This document shows, piece by piece, positions 4,507 to 47,884 of a DNA stretch of 47,884 nt. Under the pieces are notes generated by a model. The model was not told the origin of the DNA and did no database searches. It saw nothing but the letters and a program-made list of their open reading frames with translations. Source of the DNA: Escherichia phage ZL19. Every line of letters begins with the position of its first letter. The stretch's first letter is position 1. The DNA lies in sequence record OM258170. One strand, 5' to 3'. The position numbers and the translations under genes are program-made.

Positions 4507-4655
4507 GCTTCACTGAATATGTTATCGCATGCGAGAGGTTGGTTTTCGATATGAAGACTTTCCACTGGTTCGTCATTAAGGATTTGATTAAGCCTTATAA
4601 GCAGGGCGTGACACCTGAGGCATTTATCAAGAGCTTCTATAGCACTAAAAGCTAA
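4503..4655 (+). CDS. small ORF (50 aa)
   Basis: Coupled to upstream ORF; 3' end overlaps promoter palindrome. Confidence 0.3.
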   Translation: MSFTEYVIACERLVFDMKTFHWFVIKDLIKPYKQGVTPEAFIKSFYSTKS

Positions 4656-4682
4656 ACGCAGTCGCCACGGATGGCATATAAT
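4640..4682 (+). promoter_or_regulatory. palindrome-type promoter module (variant TAGCACTAAAAGCTA)
   Basis: Motif 4640-4654, CCACGGATGGC box, -10 TATAAT 4677-4682. Confidence 0.5.
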
Positions 4683-4712
4683 TACCCAATCAACACAGCG
4701 AGAGATTGAGAA

Positions 4713-5422: not shown

Positions 5423-5500
5423 GCTCTGCTAGCTCAACAGGATAGCAGCAACGACCTTCTAAGTCGTAGGTTACTGGTTCGAATCCAGTGCGGAGCGCCA
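5423..5500 (+). tRNA. tRNA-Arg (anticodon UCU), CCA encoded
   Basis: 7-bp acceptor stem GCTCTGC/GCGGAGC, anticodon stem ACGAC/GTCGT with loop CTTCTAA, T-arm ACTGG-TTCGAAT-CCAGT, GG in D-loop; D-arm atypical (3-bp stem, long loop). Confidence 0.7.
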
Positions 5501-6651: not shown

Positions 6652-8217
6652 ATGTCTTTAGTATGGGAAGAAATGACCATTCAGGAAAAGATGGCCGTCA
6701 AGGCGATATCAGAACACAGCTTCGAGGGCTTTCTTCGCTGCTGGTTCCAAATCACACAAGGCGAGCGATACATCCCTAACTGGCACCACAAATATCTATG
6801 CCGAATTATCGACGAGATTATAGCAGGGGAGCGAAAGGACACCATCATCAACATAGCGCCGGGTAGTGGAAAGACGGAAATCGCTTCAATTCACTTTCCG
6901 GCCTACTCTATGGTTAAGTTAAAGAAGGTTCGCAACCTTAACATCTCTTTTGCCGACTCACTGGTTAAGCGCAACTCCAAGCGCGTACGTGACCTCATCA
7001 AGTCTCAAGAATTTCAGTCACTCTGGCCATGTAAGTTTGGCACTTGCAAAGACGATGAGCTTCAGGTTCTTGATGAGAGTGGCAAGGTGAGATTTGAGTC
7101 AATCTCGAAAGCGGCTGGTGGTCAGATTACTGGTGCTCGAGGTGGGTACATAACTGAAACATATAGCGGCGCGGTTTTGCTGGATGATTTTGACAAGCCC
7201 GCCGATATGCTATCAGCAGTGTACCGCTCGAATAATCACGTAATGCTAAAGAACACGATTCGCTCACGTCGCGCTAGCTCTGTAAAAGGAAAGGCGACAC
7301 CAATAATTTCGATACAGCAGCGACTGCACGTCAATGACTCAACGTATTTCATGATGGAAGGCGGTATGGGTATCGACTTTGACTTGATTAAGATACCTGC
7401 GCTAGTTACTGAGGATTACATAGATTCGCTTCCTGACTGGATTAAAGAACAGTTTGCGGAAGACGTATTAAGCAGTGAGTGCATTGAGCGAGATGGCGTA
7501 AAGTACTACAGCTACTTTCCTAAAAAGGAGTCAGTAAACGACCTTGTTGCGATGTGGGATAGTGACCCGTACACTTTCCTTAGTCAATATCAGCAGGAAC
7601 CTGTAGCACTAGGTGGAAACCTCATTAATGTGGATTGGTTCCAGCGAATCAGCGATACTTTCAGACCTCCAGCTAAGTATGACTATAGATTCATCACATG
7701 CGATACCGCGATGACTACAAAGAGTTATAGTGACTTCTCTGTGCTTCAACTGTGGGGATATAAGGATGCTAAGATTTACCTTATAGACCAGCGTCGAGGC
7801 AAATGGGAGGCGCCTGAGTTGGAGGCGGAACTACTGGACTTCGAGAGGAAATCAAGGGCAACCAGTCAGGTAGATGGCATCCTACGAAAAATCATCATCG
7901 AGAAGAAATCATCCGGAATCGGACTTATTCAGTCGGCAGGCAGAGTGATGAGAACGCCGATAGAGCCATACGTACCTGATAACGACAAGCTAACCAGGGT
8001 AATGAGCGCACTGCCACAGATTAAGGCTGGCAATGTAGTTCTTCCAGAATCAGCGCCGTGGTTAAGCGGATTGCTCACGGAGATTGCAGCTTTTACGGCA
8101 GATGATAGCCACAAACACGATGACCAAATTGACTGTCTAACAATGGCAGTAAACCTTGTTCTCAATATCGCAGATGATCCTAAGTCCAGATTAATGCGCA
8201 TAGCGGGAATTAAATAG
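6652..8217 (+). CDS. terminase large subunit
   Basis: 521 aa, Walker A APGSGKT, C-terminal nuclease-like region, position before portal. Confidence 0.85.
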   Translation: MSLVWEEMTIQEKMAVKAISEHSFEGFLRCWFQITQGERYIPNWHHKYLCRIIDEIIAGERKDTIINIAPGSGKTEIASIHFPAYSMVKLKKVRNLNISFADSLVKRNSKRVRDLIKSQEFQSLWPCKFGTCKDDELQVLDESGKVRFESISKAAGGQITGARGGYITETYSGAVLLDDFDKPADMLSAVYRSNNHVMLKNTIRSRRASSVKGKATPIISIQQRLHVNDSTYFMMEGGMGIDFDLIKIPALVTEDYIDSLPDWIKEQFAEDVLSSECIERDGVKYYSYFPKKESVNDLVAMWDSDPYTFLSQYQQEPVALGGNLINVDWFQRISDTFRPPAKYDYRFITCDTAMTTKSYSDFSVLQLWGYKDAKIYLIDQRRGKWEAPELEAELLDFERKSRATSQVDGILRKIIIEKKSSGIGLIQSAGRVMRTPIEPYVPDNDKLTRVMSALPQIKAGNVVLPESAPWLSGLLTEIAAFTADDSHKHDDQIDCLTMAVNLVLNIADDPKSRLMRIAGIK

Positions 8218-8257
8218 CACTAATTGCTAAACATTGAGGCCACGGATGGCGTATATT
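8215..8257 (+). promoter_or_regulatory. palindrome-type promoter module
   Basis: TAGCACTAATTGCTA 8215-8229 overlapping TerL stop; CCACGGATGGC; -10 TATATT 8252-8257. Confidence 0.5.
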
Positions 8258-8288
8258 TACCTTACACAAACGAGAGGAGAAAAGACAA

Positions 8289-28504: not shown

Positions 28505-28528
28505 ATAAGGCCCTTAATGGGCCTTCTT
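28505..28528. terminator. bidirectional terminator
   Basis: AGGCCC-TTAAT-GGGCCT hairpin between convergent genes. Confidence 0.5.
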
Positions 28529-28699
28529 GTTAAAACAATATCCAGCTGGTAAAACCGAATAAAGATTTTGATTTACCTCTCCATTGCTGTATTCACAACC
28601 TCTAATTGTAACTGAGTAGTCACTGATAAGAACTATAGTTCTTTCACCGCCTGAACAACCAGCTAAAATCATTGCAGTGATAACGATTAATTTTTTCAT
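28514..28699 (-). CDS. small lipoprotein (Cor/Llp-like superinfection-exclusion candidate)
   Basis: Signal peptide with lipobox LAGC, 61 aa, located beside tail fibre genes. Confidence 0.45.
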   Translation of the reverse strand: MKKLIVITAMILAGCSGGERTIVLISDYSVTIRGCEYSNGEVNQNLYSVLPAGYCFNKKAH

Positions 28700-28700
28700 C

Positions 28701-28805
28701 TTAGAACCCTTTAAAGTTGCTAGCCAGCATCAGAAGCCATACGAAGAAACCAGTAGCTGCTACACCGAAGATTGCAGAGATTACGTTAGTAGTTAAGTTA
28801 GTCAT
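28701..28805 (-). CDS. small hydrophobic membrane peptide (34 aa)
   Basis: ATG with AAGGA RBS; stop abuts lipoprotein start; single predicted TM; below track cutoff. Confidence 0.35.
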   Translation of the reverse strand: MTNLTTNVISAIFGVAATGFFVWLLMLASNFKGF

Positions 28806-28826
28806 TTTGTATTCCTTAGTAAGTGT

Positions 28827-28866
28827 GTTTCGTTTCGATGGAAAGATAATACCGCATCCTTGCGAT
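28827..28866 (-). repeat. 40-bp perfect repeat (promoter -10 plus leader), copy A
   Basis: Identical to 46447-46486. Confidence 0.8.
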
Positions 28867-28888
28867 AAGTGTTTAGCAATTAGTGCTA
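28846..28888 (-). promoter_or_regulatory. palindrome-type promoter module (minus strand)
   Basis: Motif TAGCACTAATTGCTA on minus strand, -10 TATTAT 37 bp downstream, leader CCATCGAAACGAAAC. Confidence 0.5.
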
Positions 28889-29158
28889 TTAGTGAATATC
28901 CTCACAGCCAGGAATGGACTTAACATTGTAATGCCGATAAGCGAATATCAAGTTAAGAGCCTGCTCGACCGTGCATTTAAGGGCGCCAGAGATAATAAAT
29001 GAAGACTCAGTGATGTGATTTATTAACTCATTTCTGACAGGGTCGTCATCTGCTAGTAACTCTGCGCGCTTAACAAAAAGAGCGTTGTTTACCAGGATTG
29101 TCACAACCTTTTCATTGAGCTCTTTCTTCGCTTTTGCAATCTCTTTCTCGTAGTTCAT
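28889..29158 (-). CDS. hypothetical protein (89 aa)
   Basis: ORF with AAGGCGG RBS. Confidence 0.4.
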   Translation of the reverse strand: MNYEKEIAKAKKELNEKVVTILVNNALFVKRAELLADDDPVRNELINHITESSFIISGALKCTVEQALNLIFAYRHYNVKSIPGCEDIH

Positions 29159-29300
29159 CTTATACCGCCTTGTTTTCGATTTGCATTACGCTATTAACTG
29201 ACATCATAACATTCCGATTCTGCTGCTGAGTAGTGGTTACTACATGCTGCATTTTATTGCAGTCACTTTAAATGACCACATCTTATTGTGGTCATTAGTG

Positions 29301-30122: not shown

Positions 30123-30215
30123 AGTTACACGTAACCGATGTAACTCGATGTATACAATCTCATCCGCGGAAAATGATATACGCACTGTTACGCCAATTTA
30201 CGCATTAGTTACATT
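30123..30215. repeat. GTTAC(A/G)C iteron-like repeats including palindrome GTTACACGTAAC
   Basis: Several GTTACGC/TTTACGC/GTTACAT copies in non-coding DNA. Confidence 0.5.
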
Positions 30216-30220
30216 AAAAT

Positions 30221-30270
30221 ATCTATATATATCAACCTTTTACTCTTATTATTATTATTATATATATTAC
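30221..30270. repeat. (TA)n and (ATT)n microsatellite, AT-rich
   Basis: ATCTATATATAT and 5x ATT then TATATAT. Confidence 0.8.
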
Positions 30271-30409
30271 TGTGTATATCATGTAACTACTTCTATAGAG
30301 TGTTTCGGTTATAATTTTAATATAATGTGGATTTATACAGTATTGCGTGGCAGCTATACCAATGCACCCCGCAAGGAATGGTATACACGATATACACACT
30401 GGTTACATT

Positions 30410-30434
30410 GAGCTATAGCTGGGCTGAGATGCCA
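30410..30434. repeat. conserved 25-bp box with AGCTATAGCT palindrome (copy 2)
   Basis: GAGCTATAGCTGGGCTGAGATGCCA, 24/25 identical to 285-309. Confidence 0.8.
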
Positions 30435-30514
30435 AAAAACGTAACTAGCGGCAATACCTACACGGAATTACAAAGATTCACGCGTAAGTCTGAATCAACG
30501 ATTGGCAAAACCAA

Positions 30515-35533: not shown

Positions 35534-35557
35534 TGTGTAAAGTCTCCATATGTAAAA

Positions 35558-35602
35558 TAGCACGAATTGCTAAAGTGGATTGTAGCATCTTTCAGGTATA
35601 AA
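35558..35602 (+). promoter_or_regulatory. palindrome-type module in plus orientation, function ambiguous
   Basis: TAGCACGAATTGCTA 35558-35572 with TATAAA at 35597-35602; no plus-strand gene downstream; 25 nt upstream of tailspike ATG on minus strand. Confidence 0.35.
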
Positions 35603-35623
35603 AAAAACCTCCCGAAGGAGGTT
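35598..35623 (-). terminator. intrinsic terminator of primase gene
   Basis: AACCTCC-CGAA-GGAGGTT hairpin followed by T8 on minus strand. Confidence 0.65.
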
Positions 35624-36596
35624 AGCTGTTCAATAAATCACTTGCCTTATATATCTTCTTCCTGATTCCGCTCTTGAATGAGTATTCATCATTTGGTATT
35701 ACCACATCAAGATTCCTCTCATCAGCAACGCAAAGCAATTCCCTATCAAGATAGCAAGCAACTCTTAACTTGAAATCTTTGAGTGCGTAAGCAACCATCT
35801 CCATGTTGTAGCTAGAGTGGCAAACAAGTACACATCGGTTGCCAGTAGCAAGATGAACACGAATACCATCAATCCAATTATCCACAAGATAAGCGTACTC
35901 ATCACTTTTAAAGGAACCAATAACAGCAACTGACTGGCGTGTGTAATATTTTGCAGCATAACTAACACCTCCCTCCTCGTTAATAAACATTACATTGCAC
36001 ATTTCTTCTGATATACCGTCACTATAAACCATAAAGCACGGTATTGCGTGTATTATTTCACCGGATTTTGTCCTGCCAACATCAAAACCAAACTCGCTAT
36101 AGATACCCTCGTATGTACTGAGCGGGGTTGATTCTACTCTTTCAGTCCTCTCCATTATCTCTAAGCATCTCTCGTGGTCAATTTGAGCGCCCATTTTGTA
36201 GAGCTTGGTTCTTGATGCTTGCTTGTTTGCCTTGTTAACAACCTCAACAGGGATAAGGCTTAACCACCCACCGAGAACATCGATACATTCACTAAATGAC
36301 TCACCTCGCATTTTCTGGACCCAAACAACACCATCTCCTGAACCGCATTGGTTGCAGATAATTCCACCATCACCATCTTCGCTAACCTTATTAGTCCATC
36401 TTGCGCGATCGTTGCCGCCGCAATAAATGCACGGCTGATGCTTTTTGGTCTGGAAAAACTTAGGGTCAGCGCCGCAGATGTTGATAAGTGCTTTATCCCA
36501 CAGGCCGCGCATTCTTGGTATAACTTCTTTCTTATCGTAGTGCATATCAATCTGTCTCTTAACAAATAAAAAAAGGATGTACCGATTATGGCACAT
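35622..36596 (-). CDS. DNA primase (zinc-ribbon + TOPRIM-like)
   Basis: CIYCGG...CNQCGSGDG zinc-ribbon motif; start could be M18 at 36545. Confidence 0.55.
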   Translation of the reverse strand: MCHNRYILFLFVKRQIDMHYDKKEVIPRMRGLWDKALINICGADPKFFQTKKHQPCIYCGGNDRARWTNKVSEDGDGGIICNQCGSGDGVVWVQKMRGESFSECIDVLGGWLSLIPVEVVNKANKQASRTKLYKMGAQIDHERCLEIMERTERVESTPLSTYEGIYSEFGFDVGRTKSGEIIHAIPCFMVYSDGISEEMCNVMFINEEGGVSYAAKYYTRQSVAVIGSFKSDEYAYLVDNWIDGIRVHLATGNRCVLVCHSSYNMEMVAYALKDFKLRVACYLDRELLCVADERNLDVVIPNDEYSFKSGIRKKIYKASDLLNS

Positions 36597-36604
36597 CCCA
36601 TTCT

Positions 36605-37078
36605 TTACTCTTTAGCTTTTCGTGCTGCCTCGTTGGCGGCCTTAATCTTACGCCATGATCGACACTCTGGCTTGGTGGCTAATTCAGCTTCGGTAACCAC
36701 GCGCAGCATATGACGCTTTTTGCAACGTAGTGTAAGAGGCTTGCCGTTACCGTCGAATTGCAGGTCTGGTCGGCAGAATGTAGCTCGAAAACCTTCTCCG
36801 GTTCGTTTGTAGTAGTTGTGCGACAGCTGAGCACCACGCGCAGAAATCATACCACGATTGAACCATTCTTCTACAGTTTGGGGAGTTACCTTTAACTGCT
36901 TTGCGATGTTTGCCTTTGTTCCGAAGAAATCAAGGAGCATCTCAAGCCGTGCGCGTAACCCTGCCCTTACCTCGTCTTTTAAAACGTAGTAGCCTGAAGG
37001 TCGTTTCCGTTGTTTTTTGTCTTCAGTGCGGATGGTTCCGTTATTACCGTTAGTGGTTCGCTTGTCAACTGCACTCAT
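36605..37078 (-). CDS. HTH DNA-binding protein (putative regulator)
   Basis: Basic protein with helix-turn-helix-like IAKQLKVTPQTVEEWFNRG; ATG with GAGGT RBS; divergent from helicase. Confidence 0.5.
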   Translation of the reverse strand: MSAVDKRTTNGNNGTIRTEDKKQRKRPSGYYVLKDEVRAGLRARLEMLLDFFGTKANIAKQLKVTPQTVEEWFNRGMISARGAQLSHNYYKRTGEGFRATFCRPDLQFDGNGKPLTLRCKKRHMLRVVTEAELATKPECRSWRKIKAANEAARKAKE

Positions 37079-37091
37079 TTTGTTACCTCGA

Positions 37092-37133
37092 TAGCATTTT
37101 TTGTTAAAAGTCATTCTTATTTGATGGTAGTAT
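37092..37133 (+). promoter_or_regulatory. palindrome-type promoter module (variant) for helicase
   Basis: TAGCATTTTTTGTTA 37092-37106, -10 TAGTAT 37128-37133. Confidence 0.45.
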
Positions 37134-37179: not shown

Positions 37180-39174
37180 ATGTTGCCTATCGAGAAGCTG
37201 GTTGCCAACTTTGATAAAGAAAGAATCAAACAGATTCAGAAAGATTATCAGTTTGGCGAGATAACCCCTTACGAATTCCAGTGCGTAACATTTGATGCAA
37301 TCGGAAAGTCTATTGGCAAGTACGAGGCACCATTTATCGCTGACCTTTCAGTATCCGCTGGTAAGACAATCATTCTTGCTATGATTGGAAAGCGTATGGA
37401 GCAGCTTGGGCTTCCTTATATGGTTCTTTCTCGCCAGTCAGAAATAATTAGCCAGAACTCAGAAGAGCTTCGTAATTTCGGCATCCGTAATAGCGTCTAT
37501 TGCGCCGGACTTAACGTTAAATCAGTTTACTACCCAACCATAGTGGCTAGCGAGGGTACAGCAGCTAACGGCTTGTTTAAGGGGCTTGGTGACTATGTTC
37601 CTGCCGTTATCGCGATAGATGAGGTCCATCATATGGACCATATGGATATCGTGGAGGCTGAAGAGAACGAAGAAACATTTGAGCAAATGAGCACAAAGAA
37701 AGGAGAGATGGTTTTCAAGGATGGCGTTAATACCGGATTGCTTGGCACTGGTCGCGCGCAGTACACGCTAATAATTATTGAGATGAAGCGCCGCTGCAAA
37801 GAAAAGTACGGTCGTGAGCTTCGTATCTTTGGCCTTACTGGCAGCCCGTATCGTAACAACGATCACATTGTCATTAGCAACCCAAACATCCGTGGATTCT
37901 GGCGCAAAACAGTGATTCAGGTGCCAACCAATTACCTGGTTGATTTGGGGTTTGTTGTGCCAACTGTTTACGGAGAGGTTGGTGATTTGGGTTACGACCT
38001 TAGCGAATTTGCTCCAGACGGTAGTGATGGTGTGAAAGACTTTAGTAAGAAAGAAATGGATGCAATGCAGGAAAAGATTCATCAAAACCAGTCCATGACG
38101 CAAAAGATTATGCAATTTGCCGCAAAGTTCATGGAGACTCGCAACGCTGCGCTTGTGACATGTGCCGGTAAACGTCATTGTGAGGAGGCAGCAGCAGCGC
38201 TTCCTGAGGGTGTAACCTGGGCTATAGTAACTGACTCTACTGGTGAGAAAAAGCGTAGGGAGATTCTTTCTGACGCAGTTGAAGGTAAGTATAAATTCAT
38301 ATTTCAGATCGGTTGTCTCACAACTGGCGTGAACGTCCCGCCATGGGATACATCAATCATTCTGCGCAAAGTTGGTAGTATCACGCTTCTTATTCAGCTT
38401 TTGGGGCGAGGCATGCGAATACTTAAGAAGAAACATAAGGACATGGGGATGGTCAAGGATGATCACGTGGTGCTAGACTTTGCTGGCACTCTTGATGACA
38501 TGGCAGAATTATACTTTGATCCAATCATAGAGGAGGTGCAGGATCAGAAATTCAAGTCCTCTCGTAAAGTTGGGGATAAGTCAAGAGTATGTCAGGCCTG
38601 TGGATATAAAAACTCCCCACTTGCTCGTCGTTGCAATAACGTAATTGACGGAAAGCGTTGTGATAATTTTTTTACATTTCGCTTGTGTGAAGATATAGAG
38701 GACCCGCAGACAAAATCTATTATTAAGAAAGGTTGTGGTGAGAAGAATGATATTGCCGCTAAAAACTGTCGGTGCTGCGGTGAGATGTTAATAGACCCGA
38801 ATGCAAAGTTATCTGGGAAAATGTATCGTAAAGGAGACTGGTTGCGAGTCTACGACTTTAAGATTGGATTAACAAAGAATCAATCAGGGATTGTTGCCTC
38901 ATACGAGGTCATGGCTCATAGTGGTGATAGGTTCCGGGCCTATGAGACGTTTTTTCCAGAGTCAGACCATCGCGTTTGCTCTGTAAGATGGAAAGCATTT
39001 TGCTCAACTCACATAGAGAACAGGACTGAGGCTTTTAGAATTGGCAGGTTACGTAATGCTAAGATGATTATGACTAATGCTCACCTTTTTCGTGCGCCAT
39101 TAAGGATTACGCACAGAAAAAACCAGAAAGGTCAGGATATTATCGCCAATAAATCTTTTACTATGGAGGATTGA
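37180..39174 (+). CDS. superfamily-2 DNA helicase (DExH)
   Basis: Walker A SAGKT, motif II AIDEVHH, 664 aa with C-terminal Cys-rich zinc-finger-like region. Confidence 0.75.
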   Translation: MLPIEKLVANFDKERIKQIQKDYQFGEITPYEFQCVTFDAIGKSIGKYEAPFIADLSVSAGKTIILAMIGKRMEQLGLPYMVLSRQSEIISQNSEELRNFGIRNSVYCAGLNVKSVYYPTIVASEGTAANGLFKGLGDYVPAVIAIDEVHHMDHMDIVEAEENEETFEQMSTKKGEMVFKDGVNTGLLGTGRAQYTLIIIEMKRRCKEKYGRELRIFGLTGSPYRNNDHIVISNPNIRGFWRKTVIQVPTNYLVDLGFVVPTVYGEVGDLGYDLSEFAPDGSDGVKDFSKKEMDAMQEKIHQNQSMTQKIMQFAAKFMETRNAALVTCAGKRHCEEAAAALPEGVTWAIVTDSTGEKKRREILSDAVEGKYKFIFQIGCLTTGVNVPPWDTSIILRKVGSITLLIQLLGRGMRILKKKHKDMGMVKDDHVVLDFAGTLDDMAELYFDPIIEEVQDQKFKSSRKVGDKSRVCQACGYKNSPLARRCNNVIDGKRCDNFFTFRLCEDIEDPQTKSIIKKGCGEKNDIAAKNCRCCGEMLIDPNAKLSGKMYRKGDWLRVYDFKIGLTKNQSGIVASYEVMAHSGDRFRAYETFFPESDHRVCSVRWKAFCSTHIENRTEAFRIGRLRNAKMIMTNAHLFRAPLRITHRKNQKGQDIIANKSFTMED

Positions 39175-39872: not shown

Positions 39873-40093
39873 TGGCAATTTTTACATTTGAGCAACAATG
39901 GGAAGCATTCAAGGTAATGGCGGCGGAGGAATTATACAACGCACATTATAAGCGTGATTTATGGGGTGTTGTGAGTTGCCTGGATATGAGCTTCGAAGAA
40001 GACTACCTGAACACTGATATCGAAACATGGCGAGACCGTATGGTTGCTGATATCGAAGAGATGAAAAAAGATTGCCCGGAGGATTTTTTATGA
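39872..40093 (+). CDS. hypothetical protein (73 aa)
   Basis: TAATG overlap coupling. Confidence 0.4.
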   Translation: MAIFTFEQQWEAFKVMAAEELYNAHYKRDLWGVVSCLDMSFEEDYLNTDIETWRDRMVADIEEMKKDCPEDFL

Positions 40094-41050: not shown

Positions 41051-42187
41051 ATGGCAACTGCAAAAATTACCAACGAAGAACTGCGCGAAGAACTGGCAAA
41101 TGGCATGACAAACAAGGCAATCGCAGAGAAGTACGGCATGAACATTCGCAACGTTGAATTGCGTCGCAGTAAGCTGGCGAAGAGTGGAGAATTGCACGGA
41201 AACCCAGGCATCAAGAAGCTAGTTCCTGACGGTTATATGGTTAAGGGTACGTCAACCATGATTGACGCTGATGGTAACGAGAAGATTAGATGGGTCAAAA
41301 CCTCAATAGACAATGAGCGCCTTGAGGTTTTAATGGAGCAAGCTCGCGAGGCATTCTGCTCTGAGTTGCCAAAGGCCACTCCATCTGAATCACCAAATGT
41401 TAACTTTGATAATGACACACTTGCGATGTATCCAGTTTTTGATTTGCACATTGGGGCGATGGCCCACAAACATGAGTGTGGCGAAAACTATGATACAGCA
41501 ACAGCAGAGAATGTTATGAATGGGTTCTTTGACTACGCTGTAGATAAGGCGCCAAACTCTAAGAATGCTGTATTGGTATTGGGTGGTGATTTCCTACATT
41601 ACGATTCCCTAGAGGCTAAAACCCCGGCCTCAGGCCATATCTTAGACTCTGACAGTCGTTACGCTAAGATTGTTTATGTCGCAATCCGGTCAGTTCGTCG
41701 TGCGATCTCTCGAATGATGGAGAAGCACCAAGTTATTGATATTAAAGTAATAAGTGGAAATCACGACGAAGCAGGGATGGTTTGGCTTCGCGCTGCTCTT
41801 GCTGCATTTTATGAAGACGAGCCTCGCGTAAATGTTGATGTTAGCCCAGCTGCAATGATGATGACAAGCTTTGGAACGACGCTTATTGGATACACTCATG
41901 GCCACCAAATGCGGAAAGCCGATACTCGACTAACTGTTATGGCAACTGATTTTCGTAAGTTATTTGGTCAAAGTGAGTATGTTTACACACATAGTGGCCA
42001 CTGGCATTCTCAGAAGATTACAGAAACAAACTTGGGAATTGATGAGGTTCATGGGCAGCTGGGAAGTCCTGACGCGTACTCAGCAAATGGCGGCTGGCGC
42101 TCTCAACGTCAAGCGGCAGTTATTGTCTACCATAAAGAATTCGGTGAAGTTGGCCGCTTCATTTGTCGCCCTAAAATGTTTAGCTAA
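41051..42187 (+). CDS. metallophosphoesterase with N-terminal HTH-like domain
   Basis: Calcineurin-like motifs GGDFLHYD, GNHDE, GHWH; N-terminal MTNKAIAEKYGMNIRNVELRR HTH-like segment. Confidence 0.6.
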   Translation: MATAKITNEELREELANGMTNKAIAEKYGMNIRNVELRRSKLAKSGELHGNPGIKKLVPDGYMVKGTSTMIDADGNEKIRWVKTSIDNERLEVLMEQAREAFCSELPKATPSESPNVNFDNDTLAMYPVFDLHIGAMAHKHECGENYDTATAENVMNGFFDYAVDKAPNSKNAVLVLGGDFLHYDSLEAKTPASGHILDSDSRYAKIVYVAIRSVRRAISRMMEKHQVIDIKVISGNHDEAGMVWLRAALAAFYEDEPRVNVDVSPAAMMMTSFGTTLIGYTHGHQMRKADTRLTVMATDFRKLFGQSEYVYTHSGHWHSQKITETNLGIDEVHGQLGSPDAYSANGGWRSQRQAAVIVYHKEFGEVGRFICRPKMFS

Positions 42188-46095: not shown

Positions 46096-46256
46096 TATTT
46101 CGCTCTCTTCGTTGTCCACATGAATTTGTTTGGTACTGATTTGCGCACTATTCGTACAACAATCTTATCAGTCTTCTGAACTAAACCGTAAATCTTTCCA
46201 TCAAGGGAGGCTCGGTAAACGGCCTCCTCCATTGCGTCATGAAAGTTGTCGAACAT
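46095..46256 (-). CDS. small ORF (53 aa)
   Basis: ATG overlapping stop of upstream gene, stop overlapping next ATG; below track cutoff. Confidence 0.3.
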   Translation of the reverse strand: MFDNFHDAMEEAVYRASLDGKIYGLVQKTDKIVVRIVRKSVPNKFMWTTKRAK

Positions 46257-46429
46257 TAGTGAGCCTTGTAGTTGGTAGAGAATTTAGCACCTTCGAATTT
46301 TGAAGGGCGGCGGTTAGCGTTAATTGCTTCGTAAGTTTTTTTAGTGTCGCGAGCATCAATCACTTCAACAACCATCATGGCAACCATCGGGAAAACTACT
46401 GCGATAACCATCAGAGTTAAAATAATCAT
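46256..46429 (-). CDS. small membrane protein (57 aa)
   Basis: ATG 46429 with AAAGGTAAAG RBS; N-terminal TM segment; track ORF extends upstream into promoter leader. Confidence 0.4.
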   Translation of the reverse strand: MIILTLMVIAVVFPMVAMMVVEVIDARDTKKTYEAINANRRPSKFEGAKFSTNYKAH

Positions 46430-46446
46430 TTTCTTTACCTTTCGTT

Positions 46447-46486
46447 GTTTCGTTTCGATGGAAAGATAATACCGCATCCTTGCGAT
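46447..46486 (-). repeat. 40-bp perfect repeat (promoter -10 plus leader), copy B
   Basis: Identical to 28827-28866. Confidence 0.8.
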
Positions 46487-46508
46487 TCTGTTTTAGCAAT
46501 TCGTGCTA
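46466..46508 (-). promoter_or_regulatory. palindrome-type promoter module (minus strand)
   Basis: Motif TAGCACGAATTGCTA on minus strand at 46494-46508, -10 TATTAT 46466-46471. Confidence 0.5.
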
Positions 46509-46653
46509 TTTCGTGCCTTTTCTATCGCCTTGAGCATAATTTCATGACTCTCAAGCAAGTCTTCGCGAAACCAGTCGCCGCAGGGCCAACCCTTTCCGCT
46601 GTAGGCGCTAATAACTTCCAGATCGAAATAATTTATCTCAGATGGTAGAAGCA

Positions 46654-47715: not shown

Positions 47716-47796
47716 TTGCAGATATTGCAATGATTTAGATGACTATTGCACATATAGCAATATTTCTTCATATGCAATGATGTTTTTGATTGTTGC
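47716..47796. repeat. cluster of inverted and direct repeats (TTGCA-N5-TGCAA, ATTGC-N7-GCAAT, TGCAATGAT x2, GATTGTTGC x2)
   Basis: Palindromes at 47716-47730 and 47745-47761 plus direct repeats, non-coding, near window end. Confidence 0.6.
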
Positions 47797-47884
47797 GAAA
47801 AGTGAAATGAATTGGGGAGCGAGTGAATGAAAGATTGATGGACTACCATACAAGTTGATTTTGATTCTGGGTGAACCATTTTTG

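Follow-up and report, generated by a model that had tools for sequence, protein, structure and literature searches.

In phage TLS, a 21-nt direct repeat, aaATAGCACnnnTTGnTAAAA, is found 21 times, roughly 76 nt ahead of start codons; T1, Rtp and Rogue1 have it as well (PMC11447400). The function of this repeat was left open, a stoperator, an enhancer site and an UP element being the possibilities named, and just three ordinary sigma-70 promoters were found in TLS (PMC11447400). For the T1 late region, a 'transcripton' organisation has been proposed, in which gene units are bounded by rho-independent terminators and promoters, possibly also by enhancers (Roberts et al., 2004, as cited in PMC11447400). 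A further point of reference is provided by the PeSL units of T4-like phages, cassettes that combine an early promoter with a stem-loop (PMC2839356; PMC4122927). The PeSL stem-loops act as terminators and mediate the shuffling of modules, and terminator activity, promoter activity and mini-circles have been shown experimentally (PMC2839356; PMC4122927).

The DNA analysed here is a stretch of 47,884 nucleotides from Escherichia phage ZL19 (record OM258170), which we refer to in its entirety as the window. The phage is a T1-like siphovirus of the Rtpvirus group within the Drexlerviridae; Rtp is the closest genome, with 91% identity over 74% of a 24.9-kb half-genome query, and the gene order of the window agrees with the Rtp annotation. 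At its right end (47756-47882), the window corresponds at 87% to bases 1-127 of the Rtp record. It is therefore either permuted with respect to the Rtp coordinates or extended at its terminus. The 40-mer GTTTCGTTTCGATGGAAAGATAATACCGCATCCTTGCGAT is found exactly twice in the window, at 28827-28866 (copy A) and 46447-46486 (copy B), in direct orientation and in minus-sense use, and it found zero matches in 100 dinucleotide-preserving shuffles. The original prediction of a repeat identical at two sites is borne out, with an exact match of 41 rather than 40 bp, one base beyond the 40-mer (28826-28866 and 46446-46486); similarity between the two sites reaches further, covering 65 nt at 91% once the upstream palindrome is included. 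The two copies are members of a family, namely two of about 18 promoter-plus-hairpin cassettes typical of T1-like phages. A longer repeat of about 270 bp, partly conserved (77% column identity), is present at 60-330 and 30183-30455 and contains the blocks AT-rich AATATATATATATATC...TTATTATTATTATTATTA and TTACA..GAGCTATAGCTGGGCTGA.ATGCCA..CGTAAC; both of its copies lie where rightward transcription begins, and possible roles are those of an origin or of an early control region.

Both ZL19 cassettes begin with the T1-family repeat in the form ATAGCACnnnTTGnTAAAA, intergenic and oriented with transcription, 84 nt (A) and 80 nt (B) before the start codon as compared with about 76 nt in TLS. Copy A reads ATAGCACTAATTGCTAAAC and copy B ATAGCACGAATTGCTAAAA, each with 0 mismatches to the core pattern of the 21-nt consensus. 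The TLS paper was the only match of a literature text search for ATAGCAC, and no transcript-start data on T1-like phages came to light in literature text searches. The present analysis goes beyond that paper in working out a 22-nt link between repeat and -10 box, a start motif, covarying hairpins and core alleles shared between cassettes.

About 18 copies of the palindrome TAGCAC-N3-TTGCTA precede genes in the window. Each cassette starts with the palindromic repeat ATAGCAC-N3-TTGCTAAA, followed by a fixed 22-nt spacer, a -10 box and a TACCCC-type stretch, and ends with CATCGAAACGA at the predicted start, an A-rich unstructured leader and a ribosome-binding site. A -10-like hexamer lies exactly 22 nt past TTGCTA at 94 of the 112 palindrome sites in seven genomes, and the cassettes of phage T1 show the same layout with the same 22-nt geometry. 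From 69 non-redundant cassettes, the consensus ATAGCACtAATTGCTAAA..aTg.GgTATAaTtACC.CATCgAAAc is obtained, or, in parts, ATAGCACtAATTGCTAAA - variable spacer - aTg.Gg - TATAaT - tACC.C - ATCgAAAc.AaA. The start codon is found 73-89 nt from the repeat in 13 of the 18 window cassettes. Off the usual layout, an inverse palindrome copy is present at 35557-35625, about 30 nt upstream of a minus-strand tail-fibre start; the strong hairpin AAAAAACCTCCCGAAGGAGGTT beside it could terminate transcription both ways.

On the minus strand, both copies of the 41-mer begin 7 nt past the palindrome. They contain 15 nt of a hairpin allele, the -10 box TATTAT, CTTTCC and the 14-nt start motif ATCGAAACGAAACA, which is common to other cassettes. 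The expectation that the repeat lies just downstream of the palindrome and spans the -10 box and the start of the leader thus holds for both copies, whose parts are as follows:

28871..28891, minus strand: family repeat/palindrome of cassette A, aATAGCACTAATTGCTAAAc, centred at about -42 from the predicted start
28826..28866, minus strand: copy A of the 41-nt repeat (exact match)
28866-28852, minus strand: dyad of copy A, ATCGCAAGGATGCGG (sequence)
28851-28846, minus strand: -10 box TATTAT of copy A
28845-28840, minus strand: CTTTCC of copy A
28839, minus strand: predicted +1 A of copy A, followed by TCGAAACGAAACA
46491..46511, minus strand: family repeat/palindrome of cassette B, aATAGCACGAATTGCTAAAa
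46446..46486, minus strand: copy B of the 41-nt repeat (exact match)
46486-46472, minus strand: dyad of copy B
46471-46466, minus strand: -10 box TATTAT of copy B
46465-46460, minus strand: CTTTCC of copy B
46459, minus strand: predicted +1 A of copy B

The stop codon of an upstream 89-aa ORF abuts the palindrome of cassette A, and that of an upstream 54-aa ORF falls inside the palindrome of cassette B. The hexamer TATTAT matches TATAAT at 5 of 6 positions (family consensus TATAaT). A promoter scan found no -35 hexamer near TTGACA at 16-18 nt spacing in copy B, and the best candidate in copy A is only TAAACA at 18 nt (9/12 overall). TTGCTA itself was considered as a -35 box and rejected, as it lies 22 nt from the -10 box. 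If transcription starts 7 nt past the -10 box, as predicted, the palindrome spans -49 to -35 with its centre at about -42. Class II activator-dependent sigma-70 promoters carry, for example, CRP or FNR sites centred at -41.5. The cassettes would resemble them, given the assumed start, in a dyad site at about -42 that overlaps a poor -35 region and accompanies a good -10 box. The palindrome is probably the site of a phage helix-turn-helix regulator, which would act in the manner of a class II activator on the host sigma-70 polymerase where a proper -35 box is lacking.

A candidate for such a regulator is encoded in the window:

36605..37078, minus strand: candidate palindrome-binding helix-turn-helix regulator, homologue of Rtp52 and T1 gp23

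Its product is assigned to phrog_2856 with a weak Cro-type helix-turn-helix match, and inverted repeats were reportedly proposed as Rtp52 binding sites in the Rtp genome description by Wietzorrek and colleagues in 2006. The regulator gene has a sigma-70-like promoter, TTGTCT-17-TACAAT at 37160-37132, and a palindrome copy at 37092-37106 lies between this promoter and the start codon, where it is also placed for the divergent helicase gene. This position suggests autoregulation combined with divergent activation, and the ordinary promoter would fit an early regulator that switches on the cassettes.

The cassettes can also be compared with PeSL. Both are small, repeated, intergenic promoter/stem-loop units, with the stem-loop before or over the -10 box and with the order upstream stop codon, cassette, ribosome-binding site and start codon, and in both, gene insertions, deletions and replacements end at the cassettes; the stem-loop positions seen here agree with those of PeSL subclasses. 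In contrast, PeSL units have consensus sigma-70 -35 and -10 boxes and an AT-rich upstream region, whereas in the ZL19 cassettes a phage-specific palindrome at about -42 replaces the -35 box; furthermore, PeSL units belong to T4-like phages, while the present cassettes are those of a Drexlerviridae siphovirus. Because of the missing -35 box, the phage-specific palindrome and the different phage family, the T1-family cassettes are not members of PeSL, although PeSL appears to be their closest functional counterpart.

Together with the -10 region, the spacer that follows the palindrome usually forms a hairpin, the second element of the cassette. In a fold test on 35 non-redundant cassettes, using 36 nt that cover the spacer, the -10 box and the following bases, the mean was -7.8 kcal/mol vs -3.8 +/- 0.3 kcal/mol in column-shuffled controls (z = -12.8). 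Because these regions fold far better than the shuffled controls, dyad symmetry is a selected feature of the cassette family, though the sequences vary between cassettes. One class of stems, xxCA-NGGA-TGxx, ends right at the -10 box; among its 17 sequences 91.8% of cells pair, and two stem pairs change in a fully compensatory manner, every one of their cells being paired (GC8/CG6/UA2/GU1 and CG9/GC7/AU1). The observed covariation was reached by 0 of 500 shuffles, in an alignment picked by its CA..GGATG core and hence biased, a bias of which the 35-cassette fold test is free. The 41-mer carries the allele ATCGCA-AGGA-TGCGGT of this class, and the hairpins of the two cassettes are located as follows:

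28850..28867, minus strand: hairpin of cassette A, UAUCGCA-AGGA-UGCGGUA, -7.1 kcal/mol, followed by UUAUCUUU; terminator-like in the scan
46471..46486, minus strand: hairpin of cassette B, the same as in A; terminator-like in the scan

A second allele, GCCA-CGGA-TGGC, is shared by the cassettes at 4639-4700 and 8214-8275 at the same position upstream of the -10 box; it is conserved at both loci in Rtp and present at two loci in JulesPiccard, possibly the corresponding ones. Six terminator-like structures, CCCTCTTCGGAGGGTTTTTT, in the structural-gene region at 12260-32968 are hairpins of another kind and form a repeat family of their own, distinct from the promoter cassettes.

In the T1 GenBank record, three annotated terminators fall within cassette spacers:

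38953-39030, phage T1: cassette with a rho-independent terminator between palindrome and -10 box (GenBank annotation)
39976-40050, phage T1: cassette with a rho-independent terminator between palindrome and -10 box (GenBank annotation)
41956-42030, phage T1: cassette with a rho-independent terminator between palindrome and -10 box (GenBank annotation)

In T1, annotated terminators therefore overlap unannotated promoters, and it is in this respect that the cassettes differ from the transcripton description, which, as summarised in the citing paper, is given without a single overlapping, exchangeable terminator-promoter cassette. The A/B hairpin sits upstream of the predicted transcription start, and it can therefore act only on RNA arriving from the upstream gene. 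We propose that its most likely target is such read-in RNA, whose transcription it would weakly terminate or attenuate or whose 3' end it would stabilise; the U-rich -10 box would then double as the tail of the hairpin. With 6-7 pairs and -6 to -7.1 kcal/mol, tail UUAUCUUU included in the description, the hairpin is weaker than typical rho-independent terminators; because of this weakness (-6 to -7 kcal/mol as computed), termination may be poor. In many other cassettes the stems enclose the -10 box and have no U-tract, which a terminator role does not explain.

Against this family background, the identity of A and B stands out. Over the 105 pairs of window cassettes, the 41-nt core agrees at a mean of 19.2 +/- 4.8 positions and at 28 in the next best pair, while A and B agree at all 41; the pair is a clear outlier within its own cassette family. 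The original prediction had placed this identity in an otherwise diverged genome and had suggested recent duplication or strong selection on the leader. The relatives of ZL19 lead to a different account. The region of copy B is 97.8% identical to Rtp, which carries an identical copy B. That of copy A is 100% identical to IME253 over 901 bp and sits in a module identical to IME253, TR3 and Rao1; copy A itself recurs unchanged in IME253, TR3, Rao1 and phiA2-1, all of which differ at locus B, and in Rtp nothing homologous to the copy A region was found except the promoter. The closest relatives thus differ between the segments that hold the two copies, and around these copies the genome is not a diverged one. 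With such local identity (97.8% at B, 100% at A), the divergence of the 41-mer is about what would be predicted, and no special selection on these 41 nt is needed. Exceptional purifying selection was likewise rejected: 37 of 41 positions match locus B of 12210I, where the local region is 87% identical.

The history of the core was read from an alignment of several genomes at locus A, at locus B and at a third locus, C:

Locus B, exact 41-mer: window and Rtp
Locus B, near-exact 41-mer: IME253, 12210I and BECP10
Locus B, different core with the terminator-like hairpin CCCTTCGGGGC: TR3, Rao1 and JulesPiccard
Locus A, no dyad: Rtp
Locus A, dyad with another -10 region, TACTATTACTCC: JulesPiccard, 12210I and ESCO41
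Locus A, exact B-type 41-mer: window, IME253, TR3, Rao1 and phiA2-1

In its flanks, copy A agrees with the cor-type locus of other phages, yet its core is of the B type. Downstream, 30 of 36 positions match between locus A of Rtp and locus A of the window, as compared with 9 of 36 between A and B of the window itself (17 of 23 upstream). Flanks follow the locus; the core does not. A comparable pair is found in JulesPiccard, where the cores at loci A and C have 36 of 41 positions in common. No record in the searched phage collection holds two exact copies, and an IMG/VR scan with a 32-nt core returned Rtp, IME542 and IME253 only, with no new contexts.

These data bear directly on the idea that one promoter region was recently copied to the other locus within this genome. 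A perfect identity of 41 bp, in direct orientation on the same strand, is what such a duplication would leave. However, apart from the family palindrome the identity ends within a few bases on each side, the downstream flanks being unrelated, each copy is found unchanged in other phages that lack the other copy, and the A and B segments have different closest relatives. Recent duplication is thereby largely refuted, and we consider it very doubtful. Copy B, being identical in Rtp, has been inherited vertically, and the A/B identity most likely reflects cassette recombination together with mosaic inheritance.

The explanation that we favour overall, and that we hold to be reasonably probable, is a composite and exchangeable cassette with a regulator-bound palindrome, a hairpin and a core subject to conversion. 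Cassette cores would be swapped by recombination or gene conversion, with the conserved palindrome, the dyad and the leader motifs offering short homology arms for the exchange. In the lineage of the IME253/TR3/Rao1 module, the cor-type locus A would have received a copy of the B-type core, and ZL19 would then have joined an IME253-type module to an Rtp-type right end. It is by such an exchange of cores that A and B are proposed to share both the hairpin allele and the -10 region. The layout of the cassettes, the covariation of their hairpins, the mosaic history and the position of junctions at cassette motifs are seen in the sequences themselves, while the transcription start, the need for the regulator, the terminator role and the direction of conversion are predictions.

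The junctions of other rearrangements are found at the same motifs. The segment next to cassette A is an example:

28891..29293, minus strand: insertion of 403 bp with an 89-aa ORF, immediately upstream of cassette A

Direct repeats of the half-palindrome TAGCACTAAT flank this insertion, which Rao1 and 12210I lack; judged from these boundaries, it looks as if it had entered by recombination at the palindrome of the promoter. Homology with Rao1, Rtp, JulesPiccard and 12210I stops at 28889-28890, the outer edge of the cassette A palindrome. At the other locus, IME253 and 12210I lack the 57-aa gene behind copy B, and the deletion junction lies right after CATCGAAACG. Genome-wide, 15 of 87 distinct homology breakpoints fall within cassettes, vs 3.0 expected (p = 3e-7), an enrichment that is confounded by the general preference of breakpoints for intergenic DNA and hence supportive only.

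A different account of the identity invokes selection rather than exchange. The dyad ATCGCA-AGGA-TGCGRT would be a sequence-specific DNA operator or a protein-binding RNA hairpin, read by a dedicated regulator of the cor-type unit A, the right-end unit B and sometimes a third unit, and kept identical by selection. Phages of four genera indeed carry the same 14-16-nt dyad at locus A and/or B, where it spans -27 to -12 and overlaps the region that RNA polymerase must occupy. In the form ATCGCAAGGATGCGRT it is kept at A and/or B in Rtpvirus, Veterinaerplatzvirus, Nouzillyvirus and Rogunavirus, which could mean selection and not repeated conversion; a third locus also carries it in JulesPiccard, and the version in 12210I and ESCO41 forms a perfect 6+4+6 palindrome. 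The second hairpin allele, GCCACGGATGGC, common to the cassettes at 4639 and 8214, hints at promoter subclasses. Yet stem pair 2/15 is U.G, C-G or U-A among the copies, which suits a folded strand over a symmetric duplex, and stems that differ from this one, with compensatory changes, occupy the corresponding position in other cassettes. The dyad occurs in only two places in the window, and it is dispensable at either locus, since Rtp is without it at A and TR3, Rao1 and JulesPiccard are without it at B. A candidate binding protein was not identified, and to our knowledge the dyad corresponds to no convincing consensus of a host transcription factor. We regard a dedicated dyad regulator as unlikely.

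A related and bolder proposal is that each spacer hairpin serves as an address label and not as an interchangeable terminator, with ATCGCA-AGGA-TGCGRT read as RNA or melted DNA by a specific phage or host factor. We hold this to be quite improbable. If true, the address-label hairpins would define a sub-regulon within the palindrome regulon, for instance for the timing of membrane and superinfection-exclusion genes, and other alleles such as GCCA-CGGA-TGGC would mark further subclasses.

Under the favoured cassette model, the genes behind the cores are cargo that is gained and lost at cassette motifs. In the window, the leaders and the genes that follow them are:

28806..28839, minus strand: predicted 34-nt leader of unit A, A-rich and unstructured (0 kcal/mol), with ribosome-binding site AAGGA
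28701-28805, minus strand: ORF of a 34-aa transmembrane peptide, cargo A
28514-28699, minus strand: 61-aa lipoprotein, cargo A, with lipobox LAGC and a weak Cor match (E=7e-5)
28525-28507, minus strand: terminator after cargo A
46430..46459, minus strand: predicted 30-nt leader of unit B, A-rich and unstructured (0 kcal/mol), with ribosome-binding site AAGG
46256..46429, minus strand: 57-aa membrane protein, homologue of Rtp71, cargo B

The two units are as originally named, A being headed by the 34-aa peptide and the lipoprotein and B by the 57-aa protein, for which a protein family search gave no assignable family and whose gene is followed by a chain of small genes. Whether related phages carry the repeat ahead of different cargo had been posed as a check, and a comparison across genomes showed that they do: behind this core are found the peptide and lipoprotein, an 80-aa Cor-like lipoprotein or the 57-aa protein, and likewise a 53-aa MFDNF protein directly, an 83-aa protein or an Rtp55-like gene.

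A shared structure of the leader RNA had also been envisaged, and more broadly the repeat could encode a leader RNA element (a structure, a riboregulator or a small ORF) that controls how both membrane-protein messages are translated or how stable they are. Part of the repeat, its 3' third, does lie within the predicted leader, and an ATG inside copy B opens a frame in phase with the 57-aa gene. However, if transcription starts 7 nt past the -10 box, only about 14 nt of the 41-mer are transcribed from its own promoter, and these are the family-wide motif ATCGAAACGAAAC, common to most cassettes. Both leaders folded to 0 kcal/mol, and an Rfam scan of the window gave no family at the leaders, its sole match being a plus-strand tRNA gene at 5423-5497; because the leaders are unstructured and match no Rfam family, a shared RNA structure is unsupported. 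The ATG lies upstream of the predicted start, and in copy A it opens a frame of 13 codons that is out of phase. A leader element thus seems exceedingly unlikely. As regards the tRNA, TR3, JulesPiccard and 12210I have one annotated tRNA-Arg each, possibly at a corresponding position.

Coding explanations of the repeat were also rejected. A 73-aa extension of the 57-aa ORF from the ATG inside the repeat has no counterpart in copy A, where the frame is the short one just described. The plus-strand ORFs over both copies (68 and 67 aa, with TTG starts) share residues only through crossing the repeat.

As to the regulation of the two units, their identical core promoters make the predicted co-regulation plausible, but the palindrome is common to about 18 cassettes, and any co-regulation is for this reason regulon-wide; a regulator site specific to A and B is possible.

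Altogether, the repeat itself is ordinary for the T1-like family, and its context is more useful. The 22-nt link, the start motif and the covarying hairpins amount to a testable model of how transcription is organised in T1-like phages, which has a bearing on the annotation of these phages and on the design of engineered ones. The analysis further suggests that the cassettes also act as the recombination joints behind the mosaic genomes of the Drexlerviridae.
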